Positions 4,826 through 22,913 of a stretch of DNA of 64,000 nt are shown here, piece by piece (the stretch's first letter is position 1; each line of letters opens with the position of its first letter). The notes beneath the pieces are model-generated. The model saw only the letters and a list, made by a program, of their open reading frames with translations, made no database searches and was not told the DNA's origin. A program made the translations under genes and the position numbers. Origin of the DNA: Clostridia bacterium (GTDB lineage: Bacteria > Bacillota > Clostridia > Oscillospirales > CAG-272); NCBI GenBank assembly GCA_017520505.1, contig JAFXFN010000006.1, positions 104,091 through 168,090 on the forward strand. Direction: 5' to 3'.

Positions 4826-7800
4826 TTATTTACCGAGCAAGCCGCCAAAGAATCCGTCGAATACTCCTCCGATTGAGAAAGCCGGTGCTTTGGTAACTCT
4901 TACGGTTGTCGAAACTGTTCTGCTTTCAACGTCATTTGCGCTGTAAGCATTTGCGCTTATCTGTGCCATTCCCTTGTCTTCAAGTGCAAGTGTTACTTTC
5001 CAGATACGCTGACCGTTTGCCTTGTTTTCAGTATACTTTGTAAACGTTTGACCGTTAACAACAACGTATTCCGCTTCGGAATTTGTTGTAACAGTTACTG
5101 TGAATTTCTGTCCTGCCTTAACGGAGGGCTTCATTGACTTAACGCTGTGGATCTCAGGTGCCTGTGTAGCATTAAGATAATCAACTGCTGCCTGTGCTGT
5201 CTTTGCGTTCATATAAACTGCATTGACTGTCTGAACCTGTGCGTCTACAGTAGCAGTCTTCGTAAGCTTCAGATTTGTTACGGAAATGATACCGTTTCCG
5301 TCAAGATTCTGAAGAACTACCGTGTTAGCCTTGTTATCTGCGAGTATATCATCAAGAGCATAGTAAAGATCCGTTGCGGTTGTAATATTCAAAGTCTTAT
5401 CCAAACCGTTTGTAACGTTTTTGATCTTGAGCGTGCCTGTACCCTTAGCTAACTTTGCAGCGAGCTGTACAGAAGCATAACCGTTTTTATCAACCGTAAA
5501 TGCAACTGCGTTGCCCTTTGCAAGGTAAACTTCGTTGTTAGGACCGAAATCCTTGTATTCGTTGAGTGTGTATGTGTTCTTTATGCTGTCGGAAGTATTG
5601 TCGATATACACAGCACCGTCAACGTTAGAGCCGTCAGCCGCAAAGCCCTTTACATCGCTGATAAGGATATTTCTGAGCTCCTTGAATGTAGGCATATATT
5701 CGCCGTCTGCGATATATGCATTCTTGATGTCTTCATCATTTGCACCGCCGTTTGCGGGATCGTAAATTCTGATAGCATCAAGATAGAAGTCATACTTACC
5801 TTCTCTTGTTGCATTGGCTTTATTGTTGGGAAGTCTGCTTCCGCCGTACTGACCGTGATCGAATATCCAGTTGTACGAAGCTGTAATTACTACCTTGTAC
5901 TTACCGTAAGTGTCAGTGCTCCACTTGATAACGGGAACCTGGTAAAGTCCGTCTTCTGTATCGGATTCTGCGGGAACCCACTTTTCTGTATAGAGAGGCT
6001 TACCGTCTTCTATTATCTGATTGCCGTCTCTGTCAAGTACGGGAACCTTAGCATACTTATAGCCGTAGTATGTGTCTACAACTGTACTCTTTACAGCATT
6101 TATCTCAGGTGCTGTCGCATCAAGGCTCGCATACGGGAATACCTGAACTGCAATTGTACCTGTCTTGTTTGTTGTATAGCTTATAACGTCGAAGCCTTTA
6201 CCGACAAAAGTAAATGTTGCTGTAGCATATTTACCTGTAGAGGAAGCAATTCTACCGTTTTCATCATACTTATCGGTTCTTTCAACTGTTACCTTCTGTG
6301 CTGAACCGAATGAATATTTTGAAGAATCAACGTATGCGCCGTCATTGCCGTATACGTTTGCGATGGTCTCGCCAACTCTGTCATCTCTCTGAACGTCGTC
6401 CTTTTCGGTTCCGACTGTTGTCCAGCTGTTAGCTATAACCTCGCCTTCTTCCGAATAGTTGTTAACTGTAAATGATACGAAATCATCTTCAAAGTAGATA
6501 AGTGTTGCGGGGATAACCGTAAGGTTACCGTAATATTTACCGTTGGGCATTTCAGAACCGCTGTACTGTGCACCGTATGTAACAGAATCAACATCTGTCA
6601 TCTGCATTTCGTCGAGCTGATAACGGATCTCGTTATCCACACAGCTGAATTTACCGAATGCACCGTTGAGTGTTTTGTCTGAAGCAACAAAGCCGTCGGG
6701 TGTGTCGGATGTAAGGTCGAAGTATGAGGGAGCATCAACTTTGGGAGCATAACCTGTAATTGTTGCGTTTTCAACATCGTCCTTGAAATCGTCATTTGCC
6801 AATACATCAACATCAACGGGAATACCGTAGTCTATAACTACCGTATCATCAACGCAAACCTTGGGAACAAGAGCGAACCAAACCTTTGTTTGTCTGTAGT
6901 TTGCATCTGAATTATCGTATGTATTGCCTGTTGTAAGTAACGTACCGGATTCAACGTAAGTTGTTAAAGGCTTATTGGCAGATTTCTCTATTGTCCAGTC
7001 ACCTGTAGCGGCAGACTTGGAATGTGCAAGAATCTTATATGCAGATGCATCATCGTAAAGCTGATAAGCATCAGGAATCTGACCTTCGCCGTCACCGTCA
7101 ACAATGACATTCTTCTGGTTGAGTCTGAACTGCTTTGTTACATCTCCAAGACCGCCTATCTTAAGTGCCTTGTCGAATGTTGTAACGTTACCGTTTGCAT
7201 CGATAGGCTCACCTCTGCCGTTTACAAGGTAGTAGCTGTATGTTACCTCTGCATCTTCCCAAGGAAGCTGAGGCTTAGGAGCAGTTATGGAACAAGCATT
7301 ACCGATGTAGTTCTTATATTTAAGAACCGCGTATTCGTTTGTGAGGAACTCTTGATCAGCGGGGCTTACTTCACCCTCCATCGAGCCTTCAAGATAAACG
7401 TCGTAGTGAAGCTCATATCTTGACTGAGGAATATCACCGACGAGCCAAGCGAATGTTTCAGAGGGAAGCTCATAATCCACCTTGCCATCGGAGTTAGAGT
7501 CTATCATTACCGATTTATTCTTATTGGTATTATACTTAAACGTGGAAGCATCGATTATACCGTCTTCGCCAAGGATATTAACAGATGCACCCTTTACGGA
7601 GCTGTATGCCTCTGTACCGTCTGGATTGAACGTAACTTTCTCGATGAGTGTGCCGGCTTCGTAGCCTTTTTTAACTGTACCTACCATCTCTTCCGTAACG
7701 TGTACGTTATCAATGATAGTACCTACTTCATCAAGTCTGTATGTGATGTACTCAAACAATTCAACAGCAGGTGCGGGATCAAGTGTTATAGGACCTCTCG

Positions 7801-10800
7801 GACCTGCAACAGTTGATGCCATCTGAAGATCGAACGCTTCACCGAGCTTATCTTCAAACACGGCGCCTGATGCTGCACGTATCTTCATAGCAACTTCATT
7901 AAATACGTCGTTGATCTGACCTGATCTTGCAACATCGTAGAAGTGGCCTGATTGTTCGTCACCGGAAGAAATTCTGCGGAGAACTCCGACCGCCGTATCT
8001 CTCGAAATAGCGTGATCGGCAGCCATACCGAAGCCGATAACGAATACCTCAGCGCCGAGGCCGTTAACCCATTCAACATAGTTATTTGCAGAGTTGCCGT
8101 TGGGATTGATTATCTTATATCTGCTGTCAGTATCACCCTTGATAGCCTCAGCCATCCAGTGCTTACCTGCGCTGTTTGCAAATTCGTTATATCTTGCTGT
8201 ATTCGAAGGTCTTGATGCTGCGGGAATGGCAGAAAGATTACCGTTAAGATAATTATCCCATGTCTGATATCCAACAATGCCAGTCTCAGGGTCATCCTTG
8301 TCTCTTATTTCCGAACCGCCGCCGACATAGTTATACTGCCATGTACAGCCGTCAGACATAAATATCAGATAAGGATTACGCTTTGTACCTGCCTGTGCAT
8401 TAAGCTTCTGCTTACCTGCAAGTGTTTCGTATGCAAGATGCAAGCCCTGGTCATAGTTTGTACCGGAACCGGAGTATGCCATACCGAAGCTATCTGCGAT
8501 TTCATCGATCTTTTCATCTGTAAGATCGCTTGAGTGAATAAATCTGTTTTCGATCGAAGGCATTGCAGCCAAAGATTCTTTAGGTGTAAGGAAGTGTGCT
8601 GTATCTGCCTGGTTATGTGTTGTAGCAAGAGGATGCGATTCCCCATTCATCTTCTTGATGAACATATCGCCGTCGATAAGCGTATATCCGTCAAACGTAA
8701 GTATGGAAACGGAAATATCGGACTTATAACCGTCAATCGTTTCAGCAAACTTTTTGAGCATCGTTTTGATCGATGCAACCATCTCGTTTCTACGCGCTTT
8801 TGAGTTGTTAGGCATAGGATCCGAGTTCGGGTCAGCGGAATAAGCCATTGAACCCGAGTTATCAAGAACAAGCACAACGTCAGCACCGCTGGCATCGGGA
8901 ATACCCGTCAGTGTAAGCTGTACTTCCGTAAGACCGGTTGCAAGATAATCATATTCCTCATTTAATCCCTTTTTAATTTCAACAGAACCGGGGGCGGGAT
9001 ATGTGGGGTAGTCATTTTCGGGACGCTTCTGCTCAACTGTAAGCTTAAAGCTCGAGCTGATAGCAACTCCCTGATATGTTACCTTTACATTACTGTATAC
9101 TTTATCGCTGTCTGTTGCTGTCTTCGTCTTTACATTGTCATCGTTATGAGTAAGCATATCAAGCGTTACGGGAATATTTGTAACGTGCGATACACCGTAA
9201 GCGTCAGTTACCGTCATGACAAGGAAAACGCCTGTGGGAGAATCTGCGCCCGTAGCACCGTAAGATACTGTTCCTGAATTCTTTGTAAGATAAACAGTTG
9301 CATTTGCATATTCACTTGTACGTGCGTAATAATATACTCTGTCCTGAGGTTGCGGCTCTCTGAGCTCGTTTATATTCTGGTTTGAAGGCTTGTAGCCTGC
9401 AGCGTTACCGTCTGCCTGTTCAATACGCAAACCGAAGTTATTGATCATATAGTTGTAGTACATCGTACGCCACTTATGATTCTGCTGTTCAATACCATTG
9501 TCTGTCGTTACCTTGGCACCGGGATTATAGACAGCAATACCTGTTTTTTCATTTCTGTCATTCCAGATAGCCTGCCAGCCGTCAGAAGCACCGACAGTCA
9601 ATGTTGCGCCTTGACCGAGATCATCGGTACCGTTAAAACGAAGATATCTGTCTGCCTGAGCCGTTCTGTTGAAGGCCTCGAAAATCCAACATTTAGCGTT
9701 GGGAAGATTAACATGGCCTGCTGCGTGAGATATCCATATTGACTGCCACGGAGCAGCATCGATTACCAACTGTCTTTCGCCGTCAACGAATATTTCATAC
9801 GCGAAAACTTCCTGTGTTGAAACGTTTCTTCCGTCTTCAGTTTTAAGAAGTCTTACATATCCGGGATTCTGGCTTTCAGCGATATGTATATATCCACCGT
9901 CAATAAATAAATTGTTCTGGTCGGGATCTGCAAGAACAAAGAATGATGAATTCTTGCTCACCTCATCATAATTATTGGCAACAAGTTCCTTTACAGCTTT
10001 AACCACAAGTGTAAAGTTATCGGCAAGCTGAACACCGTTGTAGCTTACCTTGACGTTATTATACGTTCCTGCCGTTGTAAGATCAGCACCCGAAAGCATA
10101 TCCGTTGTAACGGGAACACGGGTAAGCTTGCCGTCAACGTAAAGGTGGATGTATGCGCCTGTAGGTGCAAACTTGCCTGTATTTACAGCAACTGTACCCT
10201 TGTTTGAGTAAAGATAGCCCTTGATCTCAGGGATGTCTTTTGAGCCTACTTTTTCGTACAGCTGTGCCATCGTTTTAGCAGAACCCTTAGCTACCATATT
10301 AAAATTCGTGTACTGTTTGTTGTCCTGAGCTGTAAAAACACCATAACTGATATAACCGGCATTTTTTCCGTCAACAGTTACAACAGTCGGGGGATAAGAT
10401 GATGTATATATCGTTTTCAAACCCGCAAGGTCAATATTGTCATTGGCAATAATCCACTTTGAAGTACGTCCCTCGCTCTTATCCAAAGCAAGTGAGAAGT
10501 ATCCGGAATGATATCCGCCTGAACCACCGTTAGGATGTTGGGCAAGATAGCCTTTGTGTGTATTACCGTTGTTGTCTTTTGAAGTTGTAACAAGGTAATA
10601 TGCATTACTTCCGGCTGATTCAAACTTCCACTCGCCGAATTCAGCAGATGAAAAAGTATTTGTTACGTACTTACCCGGATCAAGTGAGGTTGTTTGTACC
10701 GGTATTTCAAAAACCTTTAATCCGTTGAGTGTTTGCAGATATCGGCCGTCGCCTCTTTGAGCGCCGCCGAGCGCAGAGGCTTCGCCGGGAACGTCCGTAC

Positions 10801-11035
10801 TGACGATCATATACGTTTTGCTCGTACTGATGTCAGCAGCTGTGTAATTTTCTACAAGCTTGTAGACTGTCTTCGTTTCGGCTTTTTGAATCAAGATCAA
10901 TTCAGGCTCGGCAAGACTTTCAATTCCCTCATTGATAACGCTTTCAGCGAGCGTAACAACGGGAGAAAGAAGCATTGACAAACACAAAACGACCGATAGG
11001 ATTCGTCTTAAGCCAAACTTTTTCTTTGATTCCAT
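4826..11035 (-). CDS. Giant secreted surface protein (2069 aa) with a von Willebrand factor A domain and Ig-like repeats
   Basis: Signal peptide MESKKKFGLRRILSVVLCLSMLLSPVVTLA. VWA MIDAS motif DVVLVLDNSGSM, later FMSDG. Repeated beta-rich modules (..NVKVSYNGVQLADNFTLVV.. and ..NVKVTYQGVAISSSFKLTV..). AGGAG RBS. I saw no LPXTG motif. Confidence 0.7.
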   Translation of the reverse strand: MESKKKFGLRRILSVVLCLSMLLSPVVTLAESVINEGIESLAEPELILIQKAETKTVYKLVENYTAADISTSKTYMIVSTDVPGEASALGGAQRGDGRYLQTLNGLKVFEIPVQTTSLDPGKYVTNTFSSAEFGEWKFESAGSNAYYLVTTSKDNNGNTHKGYLAQHPNGGSGGYHSGYFSLALDKSEGRTSKWIIANDNIDLAGLKTIYTSSYPPTVVTVDGKNAGYISYGVFTAQDNKQYTNFNMVAKGSAKTMAQLYEKVGSKDIPEIKGYLYSNKGTVAVNTGKFAPTGAYIHLYVDGKLTRVPVTTDMLSGADLTTAGTYNNVKVSYNGVQLADNFTLVVKAVKELVANNYDEVSKNSSFFVLADPDQNNLFIDGGYIHIAESQNPGYVRLLKTEDGRNVSTQEVFAYEIFVDGERQLVIDAAPWQSIWISHAAGHVNLPNAKCWIFEAFNRTAQADRYLRFNGTDDLGQGATLTVGASDGWQAIWNDRNEKTGIAVYNPGAKVTTDNGIEQQNHKWRTMYYNYMINNFGLRIEQADGNAAGYKPSNQNINELREPQPQDRVYYYARTSEYANATVYLTKNSGTVSYGATGADSPTGVFLVMTVTDAYGVSHVTNIPVTLDMLTHNDDNVKTKTATDSDKVYSNVKVTYQGVAISSSFKLTVEQKRPENDYPTYPAPGSVEIKKGLNEEYDYLATGLTEVQLTLTGIPDASGADVVLVLDNSGSMAYSADPNSDPMPNNSKARRNEMVASIKTMLKKFAETIDGYKSDISVSILTFDGYTLIDGDMFIKKMNGESHPLATTHNQADTAHFLTPKESLAAMPSIENRFIHSSDLTDEKIDEIADSFGMAYSGSGTNYDQGLHLAYETLAGKQKLNAQAGTKRNPYLIFMSDGCTWQYNYVGGGSEIRDKDDPETGIVGYQTWDNYLNGNLSAIPAASRPSNTARYNEFANSAGKHWMAEAIKGDTDSRYKIINPNGNSANNYVEWVNGLGAEVFVIGFGMAADHAISRDTAVGVLRRISSGDEQSGHFYDVARSGQINDVFNEVAMKIRAASGAVFEDKLGEAFDLQMASTVAGPRGPITLDPAPAVELFEYITYRLDEVGTIIDNVHVTEEMVGTVKKGYEAGTLIEKVTFNPDGTEAYSSVKGASVNILGEDGIIDASTFKYNTNKNKSVMIDSNSDGKVDYELPSETFAWLVGDIPQSRYELHYDVYLEGSMEGEVSPADQEFLTNEYAVLKYKNYIGNACSITAPKPQLPWEDAEVTYSYYLVNGRGEPIDANGNVTTFDKALKIGGLGDVTKQFRLNQKNVIVDGDGEGQIPDAYQLYDDASAYKILAHSKSAATGDWTIEKSANKPLTTYVESGTLLTTGNTYDNSDANYRQTKVWFALVPKVCVDDTVVIDYGIPVDVDVLANDDFKDDVENATITGYAPKVDAPSYFDLTSDTPDGFVASDKTLNGAFGKFSCVDNEIRYQLDEMQMTDVDSVTYGAQYSGSEMPNGKYYGNLTVIPATLIYFEDDFVSFTVNNYSEEGEVIANSWTTVGTEKDDVQRDDRVGETIANVYGNDGAYVDSSKYSFGSAQKVTVERTDKYDENGRIASSTGKYATATFTFVGKGFDVISYTTNKTGTIAVQVFPYASLDATAPEINAVKSTVVDTYYGYKYAKVPVLDRDGNQIIEDGKPLYTEKWVPAESDTEDGLYQVPVIKWSTDTYGKYKVVITASYNWIFDHGQYGGSRLPNNKANATREGKYDFYLDAIRIYDPANGGANDEDIKNAYIADGEYMPTFKELRNILISDVKGFAADGSNVDGAVYIDNTSDSIKNTYTLNEYKDFGPNNEVYLAKGNAVAFTVDKNGYASVQLAAKLAKGTGTLKIKNVTNGLDKTLNITTATDLYYALDDILADNKANTVVLQNLDGNGIISVTNLKLTKTATVDAQVQTVNAVYMNAKTAQAAVDYLNATQAPEIHSVKSMKPSVKAGQKFTVTVTTNSEAEYVVVNGQTFTKYTENKANGQRIWKVTLALEDKGMAQISANAYSANDVESRTVSTTVRVTKAPAFSIGGVFDGFFGGLLGK

Positions 11036-12961: not shown

Positions 12962-13180
12962 GGTAAAACCTCCGTTTTGTATTTTTATTGATTACATTAT
13001 ACACGCAAAAATGCAAGTTGTCAATACCCTCCTTGCATTTTTGCAAAATTATTTTTCATATTGTATTTTGCACGGCAGAATTTTATTCCTTTTAATATCT
13101 TTATAGTGCATATATTTTCTTGACATTAATATAAAATTATGATATAATCCGCTTACACAATTATACAGGAGGCACTTTTG

Positions 13181-15436
13181 ATGAAGGCTTTAAAATTTTT
13201 GACAGTTTTGCTCGCACTCACGCTCGCAGCGTCAACCGCAGTTTCAGCCGTTCCCGGTAAAATAGGCGGCTCTACGAACGTTGTAACTAAAGAAATAAAA
13301 CTGCCAAACGGAACAAATACAGGAGTCACCCTGACGGAAATGACAATTCCGAAGTACACTTTTTATAATCCGTCAACAAAAAATGATAAAAAGGCATGCT
13401 TTACCGAATTTGATCTTGCTAATACAAATCTTTCGGTAGAAGTAATAAACTGCGGCGACTATATGGTAAGCGCCAAAACGGTTAAATCAGCCGTGGAAAG
13501 CTACAAGCAAAACGGCAAGACGATACTTGCCGCAATAAACGGCGACTTGTGGATGACAAATGTACACAGCGGTTCGGAAATGGCAAAAGCCGTTTTAAAA
13601 GTACCGAGAGGTATTATGATATCCAAAGGCGAGATATGGGCAACACAGCAGTTCGGCATGGAAAACGCCTGCGCCACGAATGACGAGCGAGGCAATACAA
13701 CACCGCCCAAAGCCGCTTTCGGCGTCACGTCTGCCAATCAGCCCGTGGTCGGCAGTCCCTCAATTGCAATTTCACTTAAAAATGAAACAACGGGTATTTC
13801 CACGGGCGTAAACGGTCTGAACAGACTCCCTGCCCCCGATTCAACCGTCGTTTACAATCACAGATGCTACAGCACAAACTATGCGCTTAACGATGCTTTC
13901 GAAATCGAAATAGAATCGTCAGACACGGCATTTACGTTCGACGGAACAGTAAAAGGAACTATCAAGAAAATATATGAAAGCGGAAGCACCTCACGCCCCA
14001 CGATAGGAAAGAATACTATCGTAATAACCGTAAGAGGCAACAGAATACCCGCAATGAGAGAAAACTTCAAGGTCGGTCACACCGTTTCATTCAAATGCTC
14101 CGTTTCCGACTCAACAGGCAACGCATCTCTCTGGAAGAACGTAAAAGAAGCCATCGGCGGTCACATCATGACACACAAAGACGGTCAGGTGTACACCTCC
14201 CTCGGCGGAAACACAGAATATCCGGGTGCATTTATCGGTTACAAAGATGACGGAAAGGTAATGTTCTGCACATTTACTGCAGCAAAAGACGGAACAAGAC
14301 TCGGCATCAACTACGCATCAGGCATACAGTTCCTCAGAACCGCAGGATATAACAGCGTATTCTTCCTTGACGGCGGCGGTTCAGCAACGATGGTAACGCT
14401 TGAAAACGGCTCATACAGCGTAAGAAGCAAATCATCAGACGGCTCACCCCGTGCGGTAATAAATGCAATTGCGGTAGTATGGAATCAGAACAAGGTATGC
14501 GCCGCACAAGGCGATATGAGCCATATCAAAGCTCCCCTTGATCTTTCCGATATTCCCGGTTACCACATCCCCGCTGACCTTATGCCTCACATCGTATCGG
14601 GATACACGAACTGTTCAGGTAAATACATTGAAGCAGATAACGCATACCACATGAGTGTAACATCAACGTCAAACGATCCGTATGCAACATTGAGCTTTGA
14701 TGCCCTCAGCAGTGTGAGCGCAGATACATACAAATATATGGTCGTAAAGGCGAAAACCAATCTCGGCAAATCAAGCACTCTGAAGCTTTACTATTCCACG
14801 TCAGCATCATCGGGTCCGAGCGAGGATTTCACACGCAACGTATCGATAAATGCAAGCAAGGACTTTAATTATTACATCGTAGATCTTTCAAAAGAAAGCG
14901 GCTGGAGAGGTACTATAAACAATATCCGTCTTGACGTTTTCGATTCTATCACAACGAATGCGGCAGACGGCACGGTATTCTCATTCGGCAGTATAACACT
15001 TTGCAAGACGGCAGACGAAGCAAGAAAGGTATCCGAGGGAATTCTCCCCGAAGGCTCAATACCGAGCTATAAGCAGTTCCTTAACCCCGGAAGCACGATA
15101 AACACAACTGCTCCCACTACGGAACCGCCTGTCGAAGATACAGAGTCTGTAACAGAAGCGGAAACGGTTATCGTCACAGATGCTGAAACTATTGTAACAA
15201 ACGAGCTTTCGGAAGTAATCACCGAATTGCCCACCGAAGATACAGAAGCAGCAACCGAAAGCGAAGATGCAGACGGCAGTGATTCCGTAACAGATGGAGT
15301 AAACACAACAGCATCTGAAACCGATGCTGAAGAAGATAAAGGTTCATCATCCGGTGTTATTATAGGTGTCGCTTGTGCTGCAGCCGTGGCTGTTGCAGTC
15401 GCCGTAATATTCATCATTAAAAAACGTAAATCTTAA
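13181..15436 (+). CDS. Membrane-anchored secreted phosphodiester glycosidase family protein (NAGPA/DUF2233-like)
   Basis: Signal peptide MKALKFLTVLLALTLAASTAVSA. AAINGDLW and FFLDGGGSATMV blocks typical of the phosphodiester glycosidase family. A T/E/D-rich linker is followed by a C-terminal TM anchor VIIGVACAAAVAVAVAVIFIIKKRKS. AGGAGG RBS; ATG 13181 preferred over TTG 13178. Confidence 0.6.
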   Translation: MKALKFLTVLLALTLAASTAVSAVPGKIGGSTNVVTKEIKLPNGTNTGVTLTEMTIPKYTFYNPSTKNDKKACFTEFDLANTNLSVEVINCGDYMVSAKTVKSAVESYKQNGKTILAAINGDLWMTNVHSGSEMAKAVLKVPRGIMISKGEIWATQQFGMENACATNDERGNTTPPKAAFGVTSANQPVVGSPSIAISLKNETTGISTGVNGLNRLPAPDSTVVYNHRCYSTNYALNDAFEIEIESSDTAFTFDGTVKGTIKKIYESGSTSRPTIGKNTIVITVRGNRIPAMRENFKVGHTVSFKCSVSDSTGNASLWKNVKEAIGGHIMTHKDGQVYTSLGGNTEYPGAFIGYKDDGKVMFCTFTAAKDGTRLGINYASGIQFLRTAGYNSVFFLDGGGSATMVTLENGSYSVRSKSSDGSPRAVINAIAVVWNQNKVCAAQGDMSHIKAPLDLSDIPGYHIPADLMPHIVSGYTNCSGKYIEADNAYHMSVTSTSNDPYATLSFDALSSVSADTYKYMVVKAKTNLGKSSTLKLYYSTSASSGPSEDFTRNVSINASKDFNYYIVDLSKESGWRGTINNIRLDVFDSITTNAADGTVFSFGSITLCKTADEARKVSEGILPEGSIPSYKQFLNPGSTINTTAPTTEPPVEDTESVTEAETVIVTDAETIVTNELSEVITELPTEDTEAATESEDADGSDSVTDGVNTTASETDAEEDKGSSSGVIIGVACAAAVAVAVAVIFIIKKRKS

Positions 15437-15444
15437 CAAAAAAT

Positions 15445-15480
15445 GCCCCTGACAGATCAAAATCTGCCAGGGGCTTCGTT
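15445..15480. terminator. Bidirectional intrinsic terminator
   Basis: GCCCCTGACAGAT/ATCTGCCAGGGGC hairpin preceded by an A-run, with a T-rich stretch following. Confidence 0.6.
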
Positions 15481-15523: not shown

Positions 15524-15841
15524 TTATTCCTCAACCTCTTTTAAAAGAAGCTTCTTTTCAAAGCCTCCTCGCTTTAAAAACTTTTCTTTTCTTACCCTTT
15601 CAAGCTCATCAAGCGTATATCCTCGTGCTGCAGCCGCCGCATACAGAACCTCGAGAAGGTCTGCAAGTTCCTCAATGCTTCCGTCTTTATAGTATTCCTC
15701 AAGCTCTTCACCGAGCTTTTTATCCACCATTTCAAGATAAGCTTCGTTATCCATAACCACGATACAGCACTTTTTGCCCTGCGCTGATATTATTTCGGGA
15801 ATTTTATCTCTGACGAGCTTATCGTATTTTTTTATGCTCAT
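15524..15841 (-). CDS. MazG-like / PRA-PH-like nucleoside triphosphate pyrophosphohydrolase
   Basis: 105 aa. KLVRDKIPEII ... EELEEY....SIEELADLLEVLYA ... KRGGFEKKLLL matches the small all-alpha NTP pyrophosphohydrolase family. Confidence 0.55.
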   Translation of the reverse strand: MSIKKYDKLVRDKIPEIISAQGKKCCIVVMDNEAYLEMVDKKLGEELEEYYKDGSIEELADLLEVLYAAAAARGYTLDELERVRKEKFLKRGGFEKKLLLKEVEE

Positions 15842-15904
15842 ATTTTTTCCTTCCGCATTATCAAAATGGTTACCGTCAAGCGATAACCATTTTGTAATTT
15901 TTAA

Positions 15905-17950
15905 TTAATCGATAGGTCTGTATGCAAATCTGAACTGCATATTGCTGTATGACAAAGGCTCATACGAGGGCTGTGTAGACTGAAGTCTTTTTACTGAGCC
16001 TGCGTCATATCTGTATGTATTTGCGCCGTACGTACCTGCGGAAATAAACGTGTGGCAAGGATAGTTCTTATAGTTTGCAGGAACAGCAAGGTTATTACTG
16101 TAACCAACAAATATTATATCGCCGGGGCGTACATCAGCAAGATTCGTATGCTTTTGGAAGCCGAGGCTTATCAAAAGGTTTTCCAAAGGACCGTAAAGCG
16201 TGAAGCCCTTTGTCGCTGGCTGTCTGTCTCTTGCAAAGCCTGCATCGTAAAGTGTCCAGCCCACGAATCTGTCGCAAGATACGATCTTTTCACTCTTATC
16301 AAGTGCAGGGTTAACGCTCGCGTCACCGTATCTGTATCCGTTATCTCTTACATAGTCGGCGTTTATCTTTGCGTGGTGGAGGATTCTTGCCGCCGCCATA
16401 GTGGGACAAGGATTGTACACAACGTTTCCGCCCTGACGTACCACCTGGCCATAATGCGCCTTAACGTTTGCTCTTGCTTCTTCAATGGATTCATACTGAC
16501 CGTAGACTGTTGTTCCGTAAGGACAGGTTACAGCATATTCGGGAAGCTTCAATCTGTAATCATCAACAATAAACTGCTGTGCAGGTGAAAGATTGCTTGT
16601 GTAAAGGTGAACATTCGTGTTCTCAGCATCGGAAGCACCGTAAACGTCAACAACAAAGTTATCACCGAGTGCTGACATAAGCGTTATCTTGCCGAGGCGC
16701 ATATAGGCATACCAGCGCTGTGCTGTTGTGCCGTTGGAATCGTACACCTGAATGTTTGCACCATCAGCCATTTCCGCCGCAAATACGTCAAGAACCTTGC
16801 CTGTCTGCACGTTTTTAATGATATACGTACCGTCTGTCTGCATCAGGAACTGCCAATACTGTCCATACGGCTTTATGCATACGTTATTTGAAGAATCGAC
16901 ACTGATATATCCGTTGTTGAATTTGAGCGTTGTATAGAACATAGGCTGACTCAGAGGACCGACATTATCAAAATATGCATTCGTATCCAGATCAACCTCA
17001 CCAATATCGTTTAAGTAGAATATCTGTGAATCCGAGTAGCTTACACCGTATATGTTTACCGTTGCGTCATTTTCCGTTGACGAGGAAGAAACCTCAAGAA
17101 CTCTGTCATATCCGCATTTTGAACGGATTATATAACCGCCGTCGTACTCAATAAGATACCACCGCTGATTTTCCGCACCCGTATTTTTGTACGTACCGAC
17201 AAGGTTACCAAGATGCGTAGAAGCATACGAGAGATCCATAACTGTGCCCGTACCAACATTTTCAATCACATACGAGCCATCATCCTGAATTATGAAGTGC
17301 CATATCTGATTTGCCGACGTCGTTTTATCAAAAGCAACAACCGTATCTTTCGCAAGACTCACGCCAAGTGAGTTATCGGTATAAGAAAGATCTATCGTTG
17401 CATAAAAGCTTTCGCCGAGATTTTTTGTGGGTTTGTCCGCAATATCAAGCTCAGGGGTGTCGGTCATTATTGCATTTGAAAAGCCCGAAATATCATCCTC
17501 TGTGAACGAGCCGTCCTTGTTGAAATCGAGAACAGATTCATAATAAAAGGTATTATTCGCTATGAGGTGCTTTTTTGCACGCACAAGGTCTTTACCGGTT
17601 ACGTACGTATCGCCGTCAACGTCACCGTCTACAAGCAATGTATACGCAGTACCGTCTGCCATTACAAGCTTGTATCCCGTTCCGACTCTTGAATAATCAC
17701 CGACGGTATAACCGTGGAATCTGCTGACGTGTCCGCTTCCCGGAAAGCTTGACATAAGCTCCTTTACGGTAGTACCAAGCGGAATATTCTTAATATATTC
17801 GCCATCAATATATGCATCGCCAGAAGACGTCGCAACCGTTTGCGGAAAAAGCGAGGACATAAATTCCGTTTTCGCAAAGGCGCACGGCAATAAAACGGCA
17901 AGAAGCACGCAAATCACCGTAATTTTTAACAAAAGTTTTTTCACAAGCAT
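15905..17950 (-). CDS. Secreted dockerin / 2x ricin-type lectin / papain-fold (NlpC/P60-like) hydrolase, paralog 1 (681 aa)
   Basis: Signal peptide MLVKKLLLKITVICVLLAVLLPCAFA (GGAG RBS; track N-terminal extension rejected). Two EF-hand-like dockerin loops, DVDGDTYVTGKD and DFNKDGSFTEDD. QxW-type trefoil motifs (NQIWHF, NQRWYL, SQIFYL; GQYWQF, AQRWYA, AQQFIV). C-terminal SCDRFVGW (Cys) and PCHTFIS (His) resemble an NlpC/P60 or Amidase_5 catalytic pair. Confidence 0.65.
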   Translation of the reverse strand: MLVKKLLLKITVICVLLAVLLPCAFAKTEFMSSLFPQTVATSSGDAYIDGEYIKNIPLGTTVKELMSSFPGSGHVSRFHGYTVGDYSRVGTGYKLVMADGTAYTLLVDGDVDGDTYVTGKDLVRAKKHLIANNTFYYESVLDFNKDGSFTEDDISGFSNAIMTDTPELDIADKPTKNLGESFYATIDLSYTDNSLGVSLAKDTVVAFDKTTSANQIWHFIIQDDGSYVIENVGTGTVMDLSYASTHLGNLVGTYKNTGAENQRWYLIEYDGGYIIRSKCGYDRVLEVSSSSTENDATVNIYGVSYSDSQIFYLNDIGEVDLDTNAYFDNVGPLSQPMFYTTLKFNNGYISVDSSNNVCIKPYGQYWQFLMQTDGTYIIKNVQTGKVLDVFAAEMADGANIQVYDSNGTTAQRWYAYMRLGKITLMSALGDNFVVDVYGASDAENTNVHLYTSNLSPAQQFIVDDYRLKLPEYAVTCPYGTTVYGQYESIEEARANVKAHYGQVVRQGGNVVYNPCPTMAAARILHHAKINADYVRDNGYRYGDASVNPALDKSEKIVSCDRFVGWTLYDAGFARDRQPATKGFTLYGPLENLLISLGFQKHTNLADVRPGDIIFVGYSNNLAVPANYKNYPCHTFISAGTYGANTYRYDAGSVKRLQSTQPSYEPLSYSNMQFRFAYRPID

Positions 17951-18193
17951 ATCTCCTTTCAAATGCTCATAAATACAAAAGACTGATACACCTATTTTCC
18001 CAAGCTGAAAAGTGCTCGTCGCAAAAAACAGATGAACCAACAATTTTATATTACAGTATTATTGTATAAAGAAATAGTAATAAATGATAATTTTCCGTAA
18101 ATTCACAAAAGCTGTGCATAGATATAAAACATCATTATTGATAAGCTTGATACCCTGAATTTTCTTTATCTATAATCACAAGTCTGCTTTTAT

Positions 18194-18229
18194 AAAAAAT
18201 CAGGACATCTTTTGATAAAGATGTCCTGA
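18194..18229 (-). terminator. Intrinsic terminator of paralog 2
   Basis: CAGGACATCTTT/AAAGATGTCCTG stem with a 4-nt loop, and a T-run on the minus strand. Confidence 0.65.
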
Positions 18230-18237
18230 CATATTGA

Positions 18238-20352
18238 TCAGTCTATAGGTCTGTAAGCGTAATAGAATGTAGGCTGGTCGGCTGTACCGATTCTTTCAAG
18301 GAACGGAGCCTTACCGTTAAGATACGATGTAGGATACGGCGTAGGAGTATTATTGGGATTTGCATAACGGATTCTGTAAACCGAACCGTGGTCATATCTC
18401 AAATACAGGTTTCCGCCCATATTATAGCTTGCGCAAATAAATGCGTGACCGGGAATTCCGGGCTTTGTATAGTCGTACGTTGTAAATACCAAATCTCCGG
18501 GTCTGAGATCAGCAGGGTTTGTTATCTTTTTATATCCGAGAGTAGGTACCCACACATGCTGTTCGTAAACAACGGGACCGTGCTCTATCTTGTTACCTCT
18601 TGCGTCTGTAACGCCCGATCTCCAGAGTGCCCAGTCAACAAGTCTGTCACAGCTGCTGCATCTTTCATCTCTTACTGTAGGCTTTGTTATATCAAGAGAC
18701 TGCCAGTTATATCCGGGGTTCCAGTCTGCGTGACCGTATACAAATCCGTGTGCCGCCGCAAAGTCGGATATCAGCTTTGCATTATGAACTATCTTAGCCG
18801 CCATAACTGTAGGACACGTGTTGTATACCAATTCACCCTTGAGATTGTAGATAACCTGTCCGAGGTAGCAAACCGCATTTGCCTTTGCTTCCTCCAAAGT
18901 ATTATATCTGCCGTATACAATAGTGTTGTACGGACAAGATACACGATATTCAGGCAATGTCTTTGCATAATCTACAAATGCAAAGTACTGAGCCGCCGAG
19001 CCGTTATATGTATAAAGATGAATATTTTGGCCTTCAGCGTCCACACCACCTTGAACATCCACAACAAAGTTCTCATCAAGTGCGGAACGAAGTACCGCTT
19101 TACCGTTCTTCATATAGATGTACCAACGCTGTGCTTTGGTATCATTGCTGTCGAATACCTGAATATTTGTGGTGTCTTCCATAGCGGCGCCGGTAATATC
19201 AAGAACCTTACCGTTAGTACTGTTTGTTATCTTATATGTTCCGTCTGACTGCAAAGCGAACTGCCAATACTGTCTAGTTGATTTCATACAAACATTAACA
19301 CCGTCAATAGCCAAAAATCTTGAACCGAATGCAAGATTTGAATAGAATGTAGACTGAGTGAGCGGCCCAACCTGATCGAAATAAACATTGCTTGAAGTAT
19401 CAATATCATCGAGCTTATCAATATAGAATATCTGTGCTGATGAATAATTCAAGCCGTACAGATGAACATTAGTGTCGTTTTCTGTAGAGCCGGAGAAAAC
19501 GTCGAGAACTCTGTCATAGCCGAGCTTCGAACGGATTATATAACCGCCGTCTTCCTGCTCTACAAGATACCATCTCTGGTTATCAGCTTCGTGCGCCTTA
19601 TAAAGCGAAACGTTCGCACCCATATCAGACGAAGCATAAGATACTTCCATAGCTGTACCCATACCTACGCTTCTGATAACGTACGAGCCGTCGTCGTGAC
19701 GTGTGAAATGCCATATCTGGTTTGCAGATGTGGTCTTGTCGGATGCAACGATATTGCTTCCGATATTAGCCGTAACGGCATTGTCTGTATATGAAAGATT
19801 TATTGTTGCATAAAAATCGTCGCCTAGGTCTGTATTTTCGCAGTCAATGGCATCGAGCACAGGCTCATCATCCATTATAAGACCTGAAAATCCCGAAAGG
19901 TCAGCTTCGGTAAATGAACCGTCCTTATTGAAGTCAAGCACGGATTCATAATAGAACTTATTGCCTGCGATGAGGTGCTTTTTAGCACGTACAAGGTCCT
20001 TACCCGTTGCATAAGTGTCACCGTCAAGGTCACCGTCAACAAGTATCGTATACTGTGCTCCGCTCTTCACGAAAAGCTTGAATCCCGTTCCGACACGTGA
20101 GCTTTCAGCTATTTTGTAACCGTAGAATTTAGTTATGTACTCACTGTTCGGAATTTGCTTCATCAATTCCTTGGCAGTTGTTCCGATAGGTACGTTTTTG
20201 ATGTATTCGCCATCTATCGCTGCATCTTCTATTGACACCGCCGCATTTTTGGGAAAGAATGATGTAATAATTTCCGTTCCCGCAAACACACAGGGCAACA
20301 AAATGGCAAGCAATACACCTAAAATTGCCATTCGCATCAAATGTTTTTTCAT
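18238..20352 (-). CDS. Secreted dockerin / 2x ricin-type lectin / papain-fold hydrolase, paralog 2 (704 aa)
   Basis: Same architecture as paralog 1: signal peptide MKKHLMRMAILGVLLAILLPCVFA after an AGGAG RBS, DLDGDTYATGKD and DFNKDGSFTEADL loops, NQIWHF/NQRWYL and RQYWQF/AQRWYI motifs, SSCDRLVDWALW and GIPGHAFICAS. Confidence 0.65.
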   Translation of the reverse strand: MKKHLMRMAILGVLLAILLPCVFAGTEIITSFFPKNAAVSIEDAAIDGEYIKNVPIGTTAKELMKQIPNSEYITKFYGYKIAESSRVGTGFKLFVKSGAQYTILVDGDLDGDTYATGKDLVRAKKHLIAGNKFYYESVLDFNKDGSFTEADLSGFSGLIMDDEPVLDAIDCENTDLGDDFYATINLSYTDNAVTANIGSNIVASDKTTSANQIWHFTRHDDGSYVIRSVGMGTAMEVSYASSDMGANVSLYKAHEADNQRWYLVEQEDGGYIIRSKLGYDRVLDVFSGSTENDTNVHLYGLNYSSAQIFYIDKLDDIDTSSNVYFDQVGPLTQSTFYSNLAFGSRFLAIDGVNVCMKSTRQYWQFALQSDGTYKITNSTNGKVLDITGAAMEDTTNIQVFDSNDTKAQRWYIYMKNGKAVLRSALDENFVVDVQGGVDAEGQNIHLYTYNGSAAQYFAFVDYAKTLPEYRVSCPYNTIVYGRYNTLEEAKANAVCYLGQVIYNLKGELVYNTCPTVMAAKIVHNAKLISDFAAAHGFVYGHADWNPGYNWQSLDITKPTVRDERCSSCDRLVDWALWRSGVTDARGNKIEHGPVVYEQHVWVPTLGYKKITNPADLRPGDLVFTTYDYTKPGIPGHAFICASYNMGGNLYLRYDHGSVYRIRYANPNNTPTPYPTSYLNGKAPFLERIGTADQPTFYYAYRPID

Positions 20353-20548
20353 AGTGTTCACTCCTTTTTTAAAAAACACGAACATAAAAGCTTGCAAACT
20401 CAAAAAGCACATCGATAATTAACGGTGCAAGCTGACACTATAATTCTACAGCATTTTATCAAAAAACGCAACTCAAAAATGATAATTTTTTGTTAATTAT
20501 GCAAAAAACACGCTTGTTTTCAAAACAAATACTATTAAAATTACATAA

Positions 20549-20582
20549 GAAAAAATACACCGCAGCAATTTTGCTGCGGTGT
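20549..20582 (-). terminator. Intrinsic terminator of paralog 3
   Basis: ACACCGCAGCAA/TTGCTGCGGTGT stem followed by a T-run on the minus strand. Confidence 0.6.
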
Positions 20583-20594
20583 AAATATTTGATT

Positions 20595-22691
20595 TTAGTC
20601 AATAGGTCTGTAAGCGTAATAGAATGTAGGCTGGTCAGCTGTACCGATCCTTTCAAGGAACGGTGCCTCTTTTCCCTTATAGAACGTCGTTATGTGATTC
20701 GTGTCATACTGTATTCTGTAAACCGAGCCGTGGTCATATCTCAAATATGTGTTTCCGCCCATATTCTCGCTTGCGCATATAAATGCGTGGCCGGGAATTC
20801 CCGGTTTCGTATAGTCATACGTTGTAAATACAAGGTCTCCGGGCTTAAGTGCGGCAGGGTTGGTTATCTTCTGATAACCGAGTGTCGGTATCCAATTGTG
20901 CTGCTCATAAACAACGGGGCCGTGTGATATTTTATTTCCTCTCGTGTTTGTAATACCGGATCTCCAAAGCGCCCAGTCAACAAGTCTGTCACAGCTACTG
21001 AGTCTTTCGGTAGATGCTACAGGTCTGTTTATATCAAGATGCTGCCAGTTATATCCGGGATTATAGCTAGCGTCGCCGTATATAAATCTGTTTGCGGCTG
21101 CAAAGTCGGAAATAAGCTTTGCATTGTAAAGTATCTTTGCCGCCATAAGAGTCGGACAAGGATTATATACAAGGTTTTGTCCCTGATATACGACCTGACC
21201 GAGATACGTAACAGTTGCCGCCTTTGCCGCTTCAAGCGTTTCATATCTGCCGTATACTACGTTATTATAAGGATTTGTTACGGTATATGAAGGAAGCTTG
21301 AGTGCGTAGTCTTCAAATACGAACTGCTGTGCCGGGGTGCCGTTATAGGTATACAAGTGAATATTTACGTCTTCAATATCAGCACCGCTGTACACATCGA
21401 CAGCAAAGCTCTTATCAAGTGCGGAACGGAGTATCGCTTTTCCGTTCTTCATATATACGTACCAATGCTGAGCCTTTGTACCGTTGTAATCATACGTTTG
21501 AATGTTAGTGCTGTTAGCCGCTTTTCCACCTGTCACGTCAAGCGCTTTGCCGTTGAGAGCACTCGTTATTCTGTACGTGCCGTCGCCGTTGGGGTTAAAT
21601 TCCCAATACTGTCTTATAGCCTTCAATGCTACGTTGCCGTTCGACTCTATTGCCATCTGACGGCTTCCAAATGTGAGATTTGCATAGAATTTTGACTGTG
21701 TCAAAGGTCCTGCTTTATCAAAATAATCTTCAGCGTTTGCATCGAAATCATCTATTTTATTGATATAGAACAGCTGTGCATCGGAGTAATTCAAGCCGTA
21801 CATATGAACGTTGGCATCATTTTCAGTTGAGCCTGAAAAGATATCAATAACTCTGTCATCTGCGCACTTTGAGCGAATGAAGTATCCGTCCTCGTGTTCA
21901 ACGAGATACCATCTCTGGTTGTCTGCTTCGTGCGCCTTATAAAGCGAAACATTTGCGCCCTGCTCATCAGATGCGTACGAAACCTCCATAGCTGTACCCA
22001 TACCTACACTTCTGATAACATACGTGCCGTCATCGCGGCGTGTGAAGTGCCATATCTGGTTTGCAGAGGTTGTCTTATCAGATGCAACGACATTGTTTCC
22101 GATATTTGCCGTAATTGCGTTATCGGTGTAAGAAAGGTCTATCGTTGCGTAGAAATCGTCACCGAGATCTGCATTTTTCTTGTCATAAATATTAAACTCG
22201 GGCTCATCCGTCATAATAAGCTCTGAAAATCCCGAAAGATCTGCTTCATTGAATGAGCCGTCACGGTTGAAGTCAAGAACAGATTCGTAATAGAATTTGT
22301 TTCCTGCCTTGAGATGCTTTTTAGCACGTACAAGGTCTTTGCCCGTTACGTACGTATCACCGTCGAGGTCACCCTCAACAAGCAACGTGTATTCAGTTCC
22401 GTTTGCCATTACAAGCTTATAGCCCGTTCCGACTCTCGAACCTGCCGCTATATCATATCCGTGGAATTTAGTGATATGATCGCTTCCCGAAATTTCTTTC
22501 AAAAGCTCCTCAGCAGTTGTTCCGACAGGTATATTTTTTATGTACTGACCGTCAATTACCGCATCGGATATCGACAGCGCCGCATTTTTTGCAAAAAACG
22601 AAGACACTATCTCCGTCCCCGCAAAAACACAGGGCAGTAAAACAGCAAGCAATACACAAAATACCACTGCTTTAAATAAGTTTTTCTTCAT
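20595..22691 (-). CDS. Secreted dockerin / 2x ricin-type lectin / papain-fold hydrolase, paralog 3 (698 aa)
   Basis: Signal peptide MKKNLFKAVVFCVLLAVLLPCVFA (ATG 22691, GGAG 9 nt upstream). DLDGDTYVTGKD and DFNRDGSFNEADL loops. QxW motifs. SSCDRLVDWALW and GIPGHAFICAS. The 3' region is collinear with paralog 2 at nucleotide level. Confidence 0.65.
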   Translation of the reverse strand: MKKNLFKAVVFCVLLAVLLPCVFAGTEIVSSFFAKNAALSISDAVIDGQYIKNIPVGTTAEELLKEISGSDHITKFHGYDIAAGSRVGTGYKLVMANGTEYTLLVEGDLDGDTYVTGKDLVRAKKHLKAGNKFYYESVLDFNRDGSFNEADLSGFSELIMTDEPEFNIYDKKNADLGDDFYATIDLSYTDNAITANIGNNVVASDKTTSANQIWHFTRRDDGTYVIRSVGMGTAMEVSYASDEQGANVSLYKAHEADNQRWYLVEHEDGYFIRSKCADDRVIDIFSGSTENDANVHMYGLNYSDAQLFYINKIDDFDANAEDYFDKAGPLTQSKFYANLTFGSRQMAIESNGNVALKAIRQYWEFNPNGDGTYRITSALNGKALDVTGGKAANSTNIQTYDYNGTKAQHWYVYMKNGKAILRSALDKSFAVDVYSGADIEDVNIHLYTYNGTPAQQFVFEDYALKLPSYTVTNPYNNVVYGRYETLEAAKAATVTYLGQVVYQGQNLVYNPCPTLMAAKILYNAKLISDFAAANRFIYGDASYNPGYNWQHLDINRPVASTERLSSCDRLVDWALWRSGITNTRGNKISHGPVVYEQHNWIPTLGYQKITNPAALKPGDLVFTTYDYTKPGIPGHAFICASENMGGNTYLRYDHGSVYRIQYDTNHITTFYKGKEAPFLERIGTADQPTFYYAYRPID

Positions 22692-22913
22692 AAGCACACT
22701 CCTTCACATTGATAAAAAAAGAAAACCCGTATCGCCGTAAACATATCATATATAATGCATCAAAGGTATCAATGGCACAGCGCACAAGTATATATTTTAA
22801 TTTTACTGTATCATTATCAATAAAGTAATATAGAAATAATAATTTTTTGTTAATATCAACTAATAAAGTGCTGTTTCTCACTTAATAGTTTTTGTGCATA
22901 TTTAATAATACTG

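Follow-up and report, generated by a model that had tools for sequence, protein, structure and literature searches.

Proteins that do not degrade polysaccharides are also displayed through cohesin-dockerin binding, for example serpins and a protease in Clostridium thermocellum (PMC3573020, PMC5814915), and X modules of Ruminococcus bromii adjoin domains annotated as autolysins (PMC5814915). In RflaF_05439 of Ruminococcus flavefaciens FD-1, two modules, NlpC/P60_1 and NlpC/P60_2, are combined with an X-dockerin (PDB code given as 4EZY; PMC3573020). The NlpC/P60-like modules of this protein were recognised only from the crystal structure, their peptidase nature having been missed by sequence models, and its dockerin binds the wall-anchored cohesin ScaE, while its function is still unknown (PMC3573020). 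The modules described together with NlpC/P60 domains in a survey of cell-wall hydrolase architectures are LysM, SH3, PG-binding, SLH, SPOR, CWB and ChW (PMC6403190). Here we analyzed a DNA stretch of 64,000 nucleotides from an uncultured gut Clostridia bacterium (assembly GCA_017520505.1, contig JAFXFN010000006.1), called the window below, in which three adjacent genes, A, B and C, each join a dockerin and two ricin-type lectin domains to an NlpC/P60-like domain. On balance, the three genes probably encode Sec-exported modular peptidoglycan hydrolases that are tethered to the cell surface.

The three open reading frames (ORFs) lie in a row on the minus strand and span 15905-22697 in the ORF list of the window; gene starts were chosen as those yielding a signal peptide. 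They are the same ORFs, of 681, 704 and 698 amino acids (aa), that an earlier reading of this DNA (the original prediction) had reported, and the common architecture proposed there was found in all three proteins. From the N terminus, they consist of a signal peptide, a domain of ~80 aa, a dockerin, two ricin-type beta-trefoils, a SPOR-like module of ~50 aa and a C-terminal domain of ~170-190 aa. The domains named earlier are all present in this inventory, whereas the SPOR-like module, which follows the lectins and precedes the catalytic domain, had been overlooked. Proteins A, B and C all end in AYRPID, as the original prediction stated. Full-length protein identity is 54% between A and B, 55% between A and C, and 73% between B and C.

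The C-terminal hydrolase domain

The C-terminal ~220-240 residues of the three proteins have no match in Pfam, NCBIfam, PHROG or PDB sequences. The motifs SCDR[FL]V.W and H[AT]FI were found in A, B and C, so the conserved Cys and His noted earlier are present, but the residue before the His in A is Cys and not the Gly that had been given for all copies. From these motifs a relationship to NlpC/P60 or Amidase_5 had been proposed. It is upheld at the level of the fold, which is papain-like and of the NlpC/P60/CHAP type according to AlphaFold2 and Foldseek, but neither PF00877 nor Amidase_5 is matched by sequence. Amidase_5 (PF05382) and CHAP (PF05257) gave no Pfam match at E<=1 in A, B or C.

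The structure was predicted by AlphaFold2 from the C-terminal 220 aa of A with a 50-sequence alignment (A4). The model has a predicted local distance difference test score (pLDDT) of 95.8 and a predicted template modelling score (pTM) of 0.91, and is composed of a small beta-beta-alpha-beta-beta unit and an alpha+beta domain. In the model, Cys98 caps the N terminus of helix 98-108, strand 172-180 begins with His172, and Asp188 comes after strand 183-187. In the position of its secondary-structure elements, the model thus agrees with the papain-like placement expected of the Cys and His, at a helix N terminus and on a beta-strand. When the model was compared with PDB by Foldseek, the best match was NlpC2 of Trichomonas vaginalis (6biq; E 6.8e-4), and further top matches were CwlO, MepS, Ly7917, PlyPy, Lys2972 and BCE_2878, with E up to 1e-2. 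The top matches have probabilities of 0.99-1.0, identities of 12-16% and template modelling scores (TM-scores), normalised to the small targets, of 0.50-0.58. Against BFVD, seven matches were obtained at E<1e-3, the named ones being phage NlpC/P60, CHAP or endolysin proteins; the best of them (E 1.3e-5) is annotated 'Cellulosome protein'. An earlier AlphaFold2 run with a 7-sequence alignment, now superseded, gave a pLDDT of 76 and Foldseek matches at E >= 0.045, all of them to NlpC/P60 or CHAP proteins.

Profile comparisons point in the same direction. Nine of the 14 sub-threshold PDB profile matches are NlpC/P60 proteins, aligned over GDxVF...H. A weak hidden Markov model alignment to CwlO sets the family Cys on the cysteine of DCSSFV and the family His on the histidine of GHVGIY, which we take to be the catalytic residues of CwlO. 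Alignment to a canonical NLPC_P60 segment by hhalign again paired Cys with Cys (E 1.2e-3, probability 19%). Four distant family members, P0128, P0142, P0151 and P0118, have Pfam matches to NLPC_P60 or CHAP that overlap the region of the profile match. The triad is kept among the family representatives, with Cys in 131, His in 130 and Asp in 132 of 134, and the flanking motifs S-C-D-R, G-D and R-Y-D-x-G-S are retained. As modelled, the C-terminal domain forms a divergent branch within the NlpC/P60/CHAP superfamily, without existing annotation and with a predicted Cys-His-Asp triad; we take this papain-like superfamily to be Pfam clan Peptidase_CA. By Pfam's own criterion the domain is outside PF00877 (presumably MEROPS family C40) and, judged from its sequence, a relative at the superfamily level.

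The targeting modules

The cleavage sites of the signal peptides read as VFA|G or AFA|K. The following ~80-aa domain has no sequence match in Pfam, PHROG or PDB. Dockerin_1 (PF00404) was found at residues ~107-155 with 25.5 bits in A, 18.4 bits in B and 28.1 bits in C, B alone falling short of the gathering cut-off of 22.9 bits. A profile of the N-terminal 140 residues, built from 16 orthologues, matches solved dockerins (2yik, 5lxv, 6kg9, 2mte and 1daq) over its positions 76-138, at E 1e-6 to 1e-4. These include enzymes of C. thermocellum and the R. flavefaciens dockerin 5lxv; R. bromii Amy12 was matched at E 0.013. Each dockerin possesses two 12-residue calcium loops, DxDxDx6D and DxNxDGx5D, whose starts are 32 residues apart; in A they read DVDGDTYVTGKD and DFNKDGSFTEDD, and B and C have equivalent loops. 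The dockerin with paired loops that had been read from the sequence is borne out by the Pfam scores, above the cut-off in A and C and below it in B, and by the match to solved dockerins. Neither of the two observations named beforehand as contradicting the original prediction, on the fold and on the dockerin loops, was made. The two lectin-like beta-trefoils with QxW motifs are likewise borne out. RicinB_lectin_2 (PF14200) was matched at E 6e-34 to 7e-36 with two trefoils per protein, PF00652 at E 5e-15 to 3e-18 with two domains per protein, and each trefoil carries QxW, QxW and QxF.

Many family matches cover only profile positions ~50-224 of the C-terminal region, and the first ~50 residues were therefore regarded as a separable module. 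It is predicted as beta-beta-alpha-beta-beta (AlphaFold2 model residues 11-51). A SPOR domain consists of ~70 aa with a beta-alpha-beta-beta-alpha-beta fold. No direct match to PF05036 (SPOR) was found in the window proteins by Pfam; homologous tandem repeats in P0119, P0134 and P0074 match PF05036 at E 1e-10, 5e-9 and 8e-5, respectively, over profile positions 8-44 only, and in P0074 the repeats are located between Amidase_3 and Glucosaminidase domains. By this transitive route the ~50-aa module appears SPOR-like, and it is possibly a SPOR half-domain.

Family distribution and proposed function

An exhaustive profile search over 1.84 billion representatives detected 505 clusters of the C-terminal domain at E<=1e-3 and 80 at E<=1e-30. 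The ~500 family clusters, at 50% identity, come nearly all from uncultured gut Clostridia. A single-sequence, word-seeded search had given four clusters only, and the idea that the domain is extremely rare was rejected after the exhaustive search. Two of these four relatives consist of signal peptide, dockerin and domain, and the other two of a lipoprotein-like leader and the domain; the leaders of stand-alone relatives are lipoprotein-like, e.g. LLLTAC.

Partner domains were counted over 57 long family members. Ricin lectins were found 13 times, Phage_lysozyme2 nine, PG_binding_1 eight, a separate NLPC_P60 eight and dockerin seven times, followed by Glucosaminidase (5), ELLD (4), CHAP (4), Amidase_2 (3) and Amidase_3 (2). 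PG_binding_3, LysM, SPOR and Peptidase_M15_4 are other partners, and SH3_3, CBM9-like and SMI1/KNR4 domains occur too. Because the partners are mostly peptidoglycan-related, and mainly on this basis, we infer that peptidoglycan is the most likely substrate. The block of ricin, SPOR-like and catalytic domains is repeated two to three times in giant proteins from metagenome-assembled genomes (MAGs) of Ruminococcus, Faecousia and Oscillospiraceae.

The giant proteins (L027 3150-8990, L032 3168-8993, L047 3105-8993 and P0005-P0007) are 1,600-2,900 aa long with two or three SPOR-like plus catalytic copies, and in P0005, P0006 and P0007 these copies are separated by ricin-lectin repeats. In P0156, a metagenomic protein of 414 aa, the catalytic domain is fused to SMI1/KNR4 (SUKH-1) at residues 289-407. 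The SUKH (SMI1/KNR4) family comprises immunity proteins of polymorphic toxin systems.

In the mechanism that we propose, the protein would be exported and its signal peptide cleaved, and the calcium-binding dockerin would then tether it to a cohesin-bearing surface protein. The two ricin-type trefoils would bind a glycan of the wall or surface, and the SPOR-like module may contact the glycan strand. The Cys-His-Asp domain would cut an amide bond of the peptidoglycan stem peptide and would be an endopeptidase or a MurNAc-L-Ala amidase.

Evolution of the array

Proteins B and C correspond to NCBI entries MBR6644453 and MBR6644454, and MBR6644452 (679 aa) is a close relative of A; all three entries bear the annotation 'MAG: RICIN domain-containing protein [Clostridia bacterium]'. 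At least four related MAG species (L003, L004, L005 and L007) share the array, in the order dnaB-tilS-hpt-ftsH, then the array, a small ORF and a gene of the NAGPA family. More distant genomes possess a single copy of ~700-730 aa at another location. In L007 a CitMHS-type transporter gene (8908-10038) is inserted between array copies. In L003 (171-6833) the order is A-C-B at the contig start, which may reflect a rearrangement or a misassembly of the MAG across repeats.

The original prediction described the array as a diverging tandem triplication. This holds for the N-terminal cassette only, as the catalytic domain of A belongs to another subtype. Neighbor-joining gave discordant trees for the N-terminal cassette and the catalytic domain; the trees are without bootstrap support, and the gap in identity is large. 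Within the array clade, A, B and C have paralogous cassettes. The catalytic domain of A clusters with the single-copy proteins of L021 and L022 and with stand-alone lipoprotein-like genes, whereas those of B and C cluster with L009-L012 and with dockerin-only forms. The identity of the A domain is 62-68% to stand-alone proteins against 39-41% to B and C. By these comparisons, a single targeting cassette carries two old catalytic subtypes, of which B and C have type I and A has type II. The conflict between the two trees, together with the identity gap, argues for module exchange and not for plain divergence after triplication. Since there are two catalytic subtypes on one cassette, two specificities, for bond or for wall chemotype, would be expected.

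Selection was evaluated by domain as the ratio of nonsynonymous to synonymous divergence (dN/dS, omega). Paralogue dS is saturated (0.8 to above 4) and uninformative, and orthologues were compared instead. Between orthologues, nearly all domain comparisons gave an omega of 0.01-0.27, and most of those of the catalytic domain 0.07-0.18. Only signal peptides and the ricin-2 segment of C and L003, which is nearly identical, gave values above 0.27. Purifying selection acts on all domains, and dN/dS gave no sign of diversifying selection at the domain level. The selection on target specificity that had been suggested for the copies is not reflected in these values, and the dN/dS among the three copies that had been recommended for it is uninformative because of the saturation. 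The dockerin is the most constrained domain, with 80-88% identity among paralogues; as their dS is saturated, this likeness is attributed to constraint and not to gene conversion.

Divergence between C (20595-22691) and L003 2369-4501 is mosaic. From the signal peptide through the N-terminal domain to the dockerin, dS is >1.2, and from ricin-1 to the stop codon it is 0-0.13, which indicates recent recombination between lineages or copies. L003 was rejected as the window's own locus because it shares only ~86% DNA identity with the window; the 100% match over the C-terminal domain of gene C is a mosaic region.

Genomic organization

The coordinates of the array and its signals are listed in Table 1. 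The ATG of genes B and C follows a GGAG box by 7-8 nt. In gene A, the GGAG box is located 2 nt before the ATG and 8 nt before an in-frame GTG at 17944, and the closest NCBI homologue of the product has 679 aa. Given this ribosome-binding-site spacing and the length of the homologue, the true start of gene A is probably GTG 17944, giving 679 aa.

Table 1. Position of genes, protein domains and putative regulatory signals in the window.
Feature	Position	Strand	Remarks
Gene A	15905-17950	-	681 aa from ATG 17950
A, signal peptide	17873-17950	-	
A, ~80-aa N-terminal domain	17630-17872	-	
A, dockerin	17462-17629	-	
A, ricin trefoil 1	16997-17410	-	
A, ricin trefoil 2	16562-16942	-	
A, SPOR-like module	16406-16555	-	
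A, NlpC/P60-like type II domain	15908-16405	-	
A, putative catalytic codons	Cys559 16274-16276, His633 16052-16054, Asp649 16004-16006	-	
A, 22-bp upstream box	18082-18103	-	AATTTACGGAAAATTATCATTT; 132-153 nt upstream of start codon
A, hairpin right after stop	15863-15893	-	no U-tract past stem; dG -18.7 kcal/mol, z -5.8
Gene B	18238-20352	-	704 aa
B, signal peptide	20281-20352	-	
B, ~80-aa N-terminal domain	20038-20280	-	
B, dockerin	19870-20037	-	Pfam 18.4 bits, under cut-off
B, ricin trefoil 1	19405-19818	-	
B, ricin trefoil 2	18973-19350	-	
B, SPOR-like module	18814-18966	-	
B, NlpC/P60-like type I domain	18241-18813	-	
B, putative catalytic codons	Cys568 18649-18651, His636 18445-18447, Asp654 18391-18393	-	
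B, 22-bp upstream box	20477-20498	-	AATTAACAAAAAATTATCATTT; 125-146 nt upstream of start codon
B, intrinsic terminator	18199-18230	-	14-bp stem then UUUUUU; dG -20.3 kcal/mol, z -6.9
Gene C	20595-22691	-	698 aa
C, signal peptide	22620-22691	-	
C, ~80-aa N-terminal domain	22377-22619	-	
C, dockerin	22209-22376	-	
C, ricin trefoil 1	21747-22157	-	
C, ricin trefoil 2	21312-21692	-	
C, SPOR-like module	21156-21305	-	
C, NlpC/P60-like type I domain	20598-21155	-	
C, putative catalytic codons	Cys567 20991-20993, His635 20787-20789, Asp653 20733-20735	-	
C, 22-bp upstream box	22834-22855	-	TATTAACAAAAAATTATTATTT; 143-164 nt upstream of start codon
C, intrinsic terminator	20556-20583	-	12-bp stem then UUUUUU; dG -21.8 kcal/mol, z -8.1
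ORF of 105 aa downstream of gene A	15524-15841	-	unrelated to array genes
Convergent NAGPA-family gene	13178-15436	+	752 aa, secreted, C-terminal transmembrane anchor
Antisense-shadow ORFs	16052-16588, 18388-19248, 19462-19794, 20490-20927, 21357-21695, 21894-22226, 22314-22640	+	

The original prediction had assigned to each copy its own terminator and its own upstream region. A stable hairpin is indeed found after all three stop codons, but a U-tract is present only after B and C. The hairpin of gene A may be a weak terminator, or may allow read-through into the 105-aa ORF downstream; as it has no U-tract, this ORF may be co-transcribed with gene A. A canonical terminator lies beyond the ORF, at 15445-15474. 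The 105-aa ORF has no Pfam match; by eye, it resembles a small helical protein of the MazG-like or pyrophosphohydrolase-like type.

The separate upstream regions were recovered for each of the three copies: every gene has 240-290 bp of its own upstream DNA, diverged apart from a 22-bp box. The box is A/T-rich, has the consensus AATTAACAAAAAATTATCATTT and is located 125-165 nt before each start codon. Only three copies occur in the whole window, with none expected by chance, and exact copies are also found in L003 and L005. The box may be a promoter or regulator site common to the three genes, retained while the other intergenic DNA diverged. The long plus-strand ORFs inside the array genes (108-286 aa) were rejected as genes, being antisense shadows of the coding strand.

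The chromosomal surroundings consist of ftsH, hpt, tilS, dnaB and gdpP on one side of the array, and of the NAGPA-family gene, a GH29 alpha-L-fucosidase gene and an ORF of 2069 aa on the other. The latter (4826-11035, minus strand) gave no match apart from a sub-threshold one to VWA at residues ~720-784, and it showed no cohesin. Elsewhere in the window, an ORF of 845 aa (35909-38446, plus strand) matches GAP1-M, the middle domain of GTPase-associated protein 1.

The convergent, membrane-anchored NAGPA gene stands beside the array in the window and in L003, L004, L005, L007 and L008. A protein with NAGPA, ricin and dockerin domains adjoins a dockerin-plus-domain gene in L001 (8077-10512), L013 and L014 (8865-11309). 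The NAGPA protein may be a functional partner of the array, for example by removing phosphodiester-linked wall polymers. In L029 (11146-13362) and L035 (4414-6663), the leader, N-terminal domain, dockerin and two ricin modules are joined to a DUF4886 head, SGNH-like by motif (ILFIGNSFT), which replaces the NlpC/P60-like domain; these genes are ~2.5 kb from a stand-alone type II family member. The DUF4886 and NAGPA fusions indicate that the dockerin-ricin cassette is common to several hydrolytic heads in the clade.

Alternative explanations

Several observations weigh against peptidoglycan hydrolases tethered to the surface. No protein of the window matches PF00877 (NLPC_P60) at E<=1 or reaches any Pfam peptidase model, the PDB sequence-profile matches are all at E > 0.04, and the E-values of Foldseek are modest. 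Public annotation of the family is limited to 'hypothetical protein' or 'RICIN domain-containing protein', and none of its members is backed by enzymatic evidence. Substrates other than peptidoglycan are also used within the NlpC/P60 superfamily, and dockerin-like modules occur outside cellulosomes too; no cohesin gene was found within the 64-kb window. For RflaF_05439, no protease activity was detected (PMC3573020). Neither ricin nor dockerin is a partner of NlpC/P60 in the survey of architectures, and it is the absence of ricin that counts here (PMC6403190).

If the substrate is peptidoglycan, it may belong to the producer or to other cells. Antagonistic or nutrient-harvesting lysins against other gut bacteria, with lectins that would read foreign wall glycans and possibly with a scaffold shared with other dockerin-ricin enzymes, are in our judgement an unlikely but credible interpretation. 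It would account for the array as diverged paralogues of two catalytic subtypes, for the fusion of dockerin and ricin modules to NAGPA (L001, L013, L014) and DUF4886 (L029, L035) heads, for multi-lysin family members with phage-type lysozyme domains and for the one member fused to SUKH. The top structural match, NlpC2 of T. vaginalis (6biq), reportedly degrades bacterial peptidoglycan. However, there is no immunity gene, secretion-system gene or mobile-element context at the locus, the site beside ftsH is chromosomal and syntenic across species, and selection is purifying with no domain-level sign of diversification. The lipoprotein-like stand-alone members would face the producer's own wall, the dockerin would retain the enzyme on the producer, and the SPOR-like module points to the same surface. 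For these reasons, remodelling, turnover or cell separation in the producer's own wall is somewhat more likely than attack on foreign cells.

The substrate itself may be different. It may be a glycopeptide, a glycoprotein or a gamma-glutamyl polymer, on which a cysteine hydrolase or transferase would act as an accessory part of a cellulosome- or amylosome-like complex; this interpretation is likewise doubtful. It has the non-peptidoglycan enzymes of the superfamily as precedents; ricin-type lectins typically bind Gal, GalNAc or xylan-type glycans, GH29 alpha-L-fucosidase and phosphodiester glycosidase genes are among the neighbours, and CBM9-like modules or a GH106 rhamnosidase domain are found in part of the family. 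The role of RflaF_05439, without demonstrated activity, was also left open (PMC3573020). In favour of peptidoglycan, the dominant partners among the 57 members are specific to it (lysozymes, amidases, glucosaminidase, PG_binding_1/3, LysM, SPOR and SH3b), and the closest structural matches are all peptidoglycan hydrolases.

A more far-reaching proposal, which we consider improbable, is that the dockerin-ricin cassette marks a set of enzymes on a cohesin scaffold, comprising the two NlpC/P60-like subtypes, the NAGPA-type phosphodiester glycosidase and a DUF4886 SGNH-like esterase, and forming a cellulosome-like complex that dismantles bacterial walls. Such a complex would strip phosphodiester-linked wall polymers and acyl groups and then cut stem peptides, and its role could be predation, harvesting of necromass or coordinated wall turnover. 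Finally, non-catalytic surface adhesins or lectins with an inactive C-terminal binding module are highly improbable: Cys and His are lost in 2 to 4 of 134 representatives and pseudo-enzymes exist among NlpC/P60 repeats, but A, B, C and 130-132 of the 134 retain Cys, His and Asp with the flanking motifs, and the domain omega is 0.07-0.18 in most orthologue comparisons.

Comparison with known systems

If the hydrolase assignment is true, a sizeable family outside curated models is a divergent branch of NlpC/P60 that may qualify as a new peptidase family, and ricin-type lectins and dockerins join the modules that position cell-wall hydrolases. Cohesin-dockerin display would extend from polysaccharide degradation to wall biology. 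The two subtypes, with the phosphodiester glycosidase and SGNH-like heads, would constitute a candidate set of wall-active enzymes from organisms not yet cultured. No new catalytic principle is revealed.

The original prediction had found no characterised enzyme class in the fusion. The pairing with ricin is indeed missing from the survey of architectures (PMC6403190), but a dockerin with NlpC/P60-like modules has a precedent in RflaF_05439 (PMC3573020). A literature search on the combination of ricin with NlpC/P60, or on bacterial phosphodiester glycosidases, yielded nothing useful. Like the window proteins, RflaF_05439, which comes from a fibre degrader, is a secreted protein of gut Clostridia that joins a dockerin to papain-like modules of the NlpC/P60 superfamily. 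It differs in having two catalytic modules in tandem and, after them, a C-terminal X-dockerin; in the window proteins the dockerin is N-terminal and there is a single catalytic domain. RflaF_05439 is without ricin lectins and without a SPOR-like module, and its triad is Cys/His/Gln against Cys/His/Asp in the window. Since RflaF_05439 is absent both from the PDB profile search and from the best 50 Foldseek matches listed, it appears to belong to a different branch.

The canonical DL-endopeptidases (CwlO, LytE and LytF of Bacillus subtilis, and MepS/Spr of Escherichia coli) share the fold class with the window domain, with the Cys at a helix N terminus, the His on a beta-strand after GD(I/L)VF and, where the following strand ends, a third polar residue. 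They too are secreted or lipoprotein forms with wall-targeting modules. Compared with canonical NlpC/P60, the window domain is larger (~170-190 aa), with an extra long N-terminal helix, a YGxAxxNP loop and an AYRP C-terminal strand, and targeting is by dockerin, ricin and SPOR-like modules instead of LysM, SH3b or a coiled coil. NlpC1 and NlpC2 of T. vaginalis (6bim, 6biq) and the phage proteins Ly7917, PlyPy and Lys2972 are also modular papain-like lysins with wall-binding modules, but these are SH3b or phage cell-wall-binding modules, and none has a dockerin or a ricin lectin. Among the described dockerin proteins that are not carbohydrate-active enzymes, none unites a dockerin, two beta-trefoil lectins and an NlpC/P60-like domain. 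Dockerin-borne papain-like modules were thus already known, and what is new in the window proteins is an unusual assembly on an unannotated NlpC/P60 branch, and not a new kind of enzyme.

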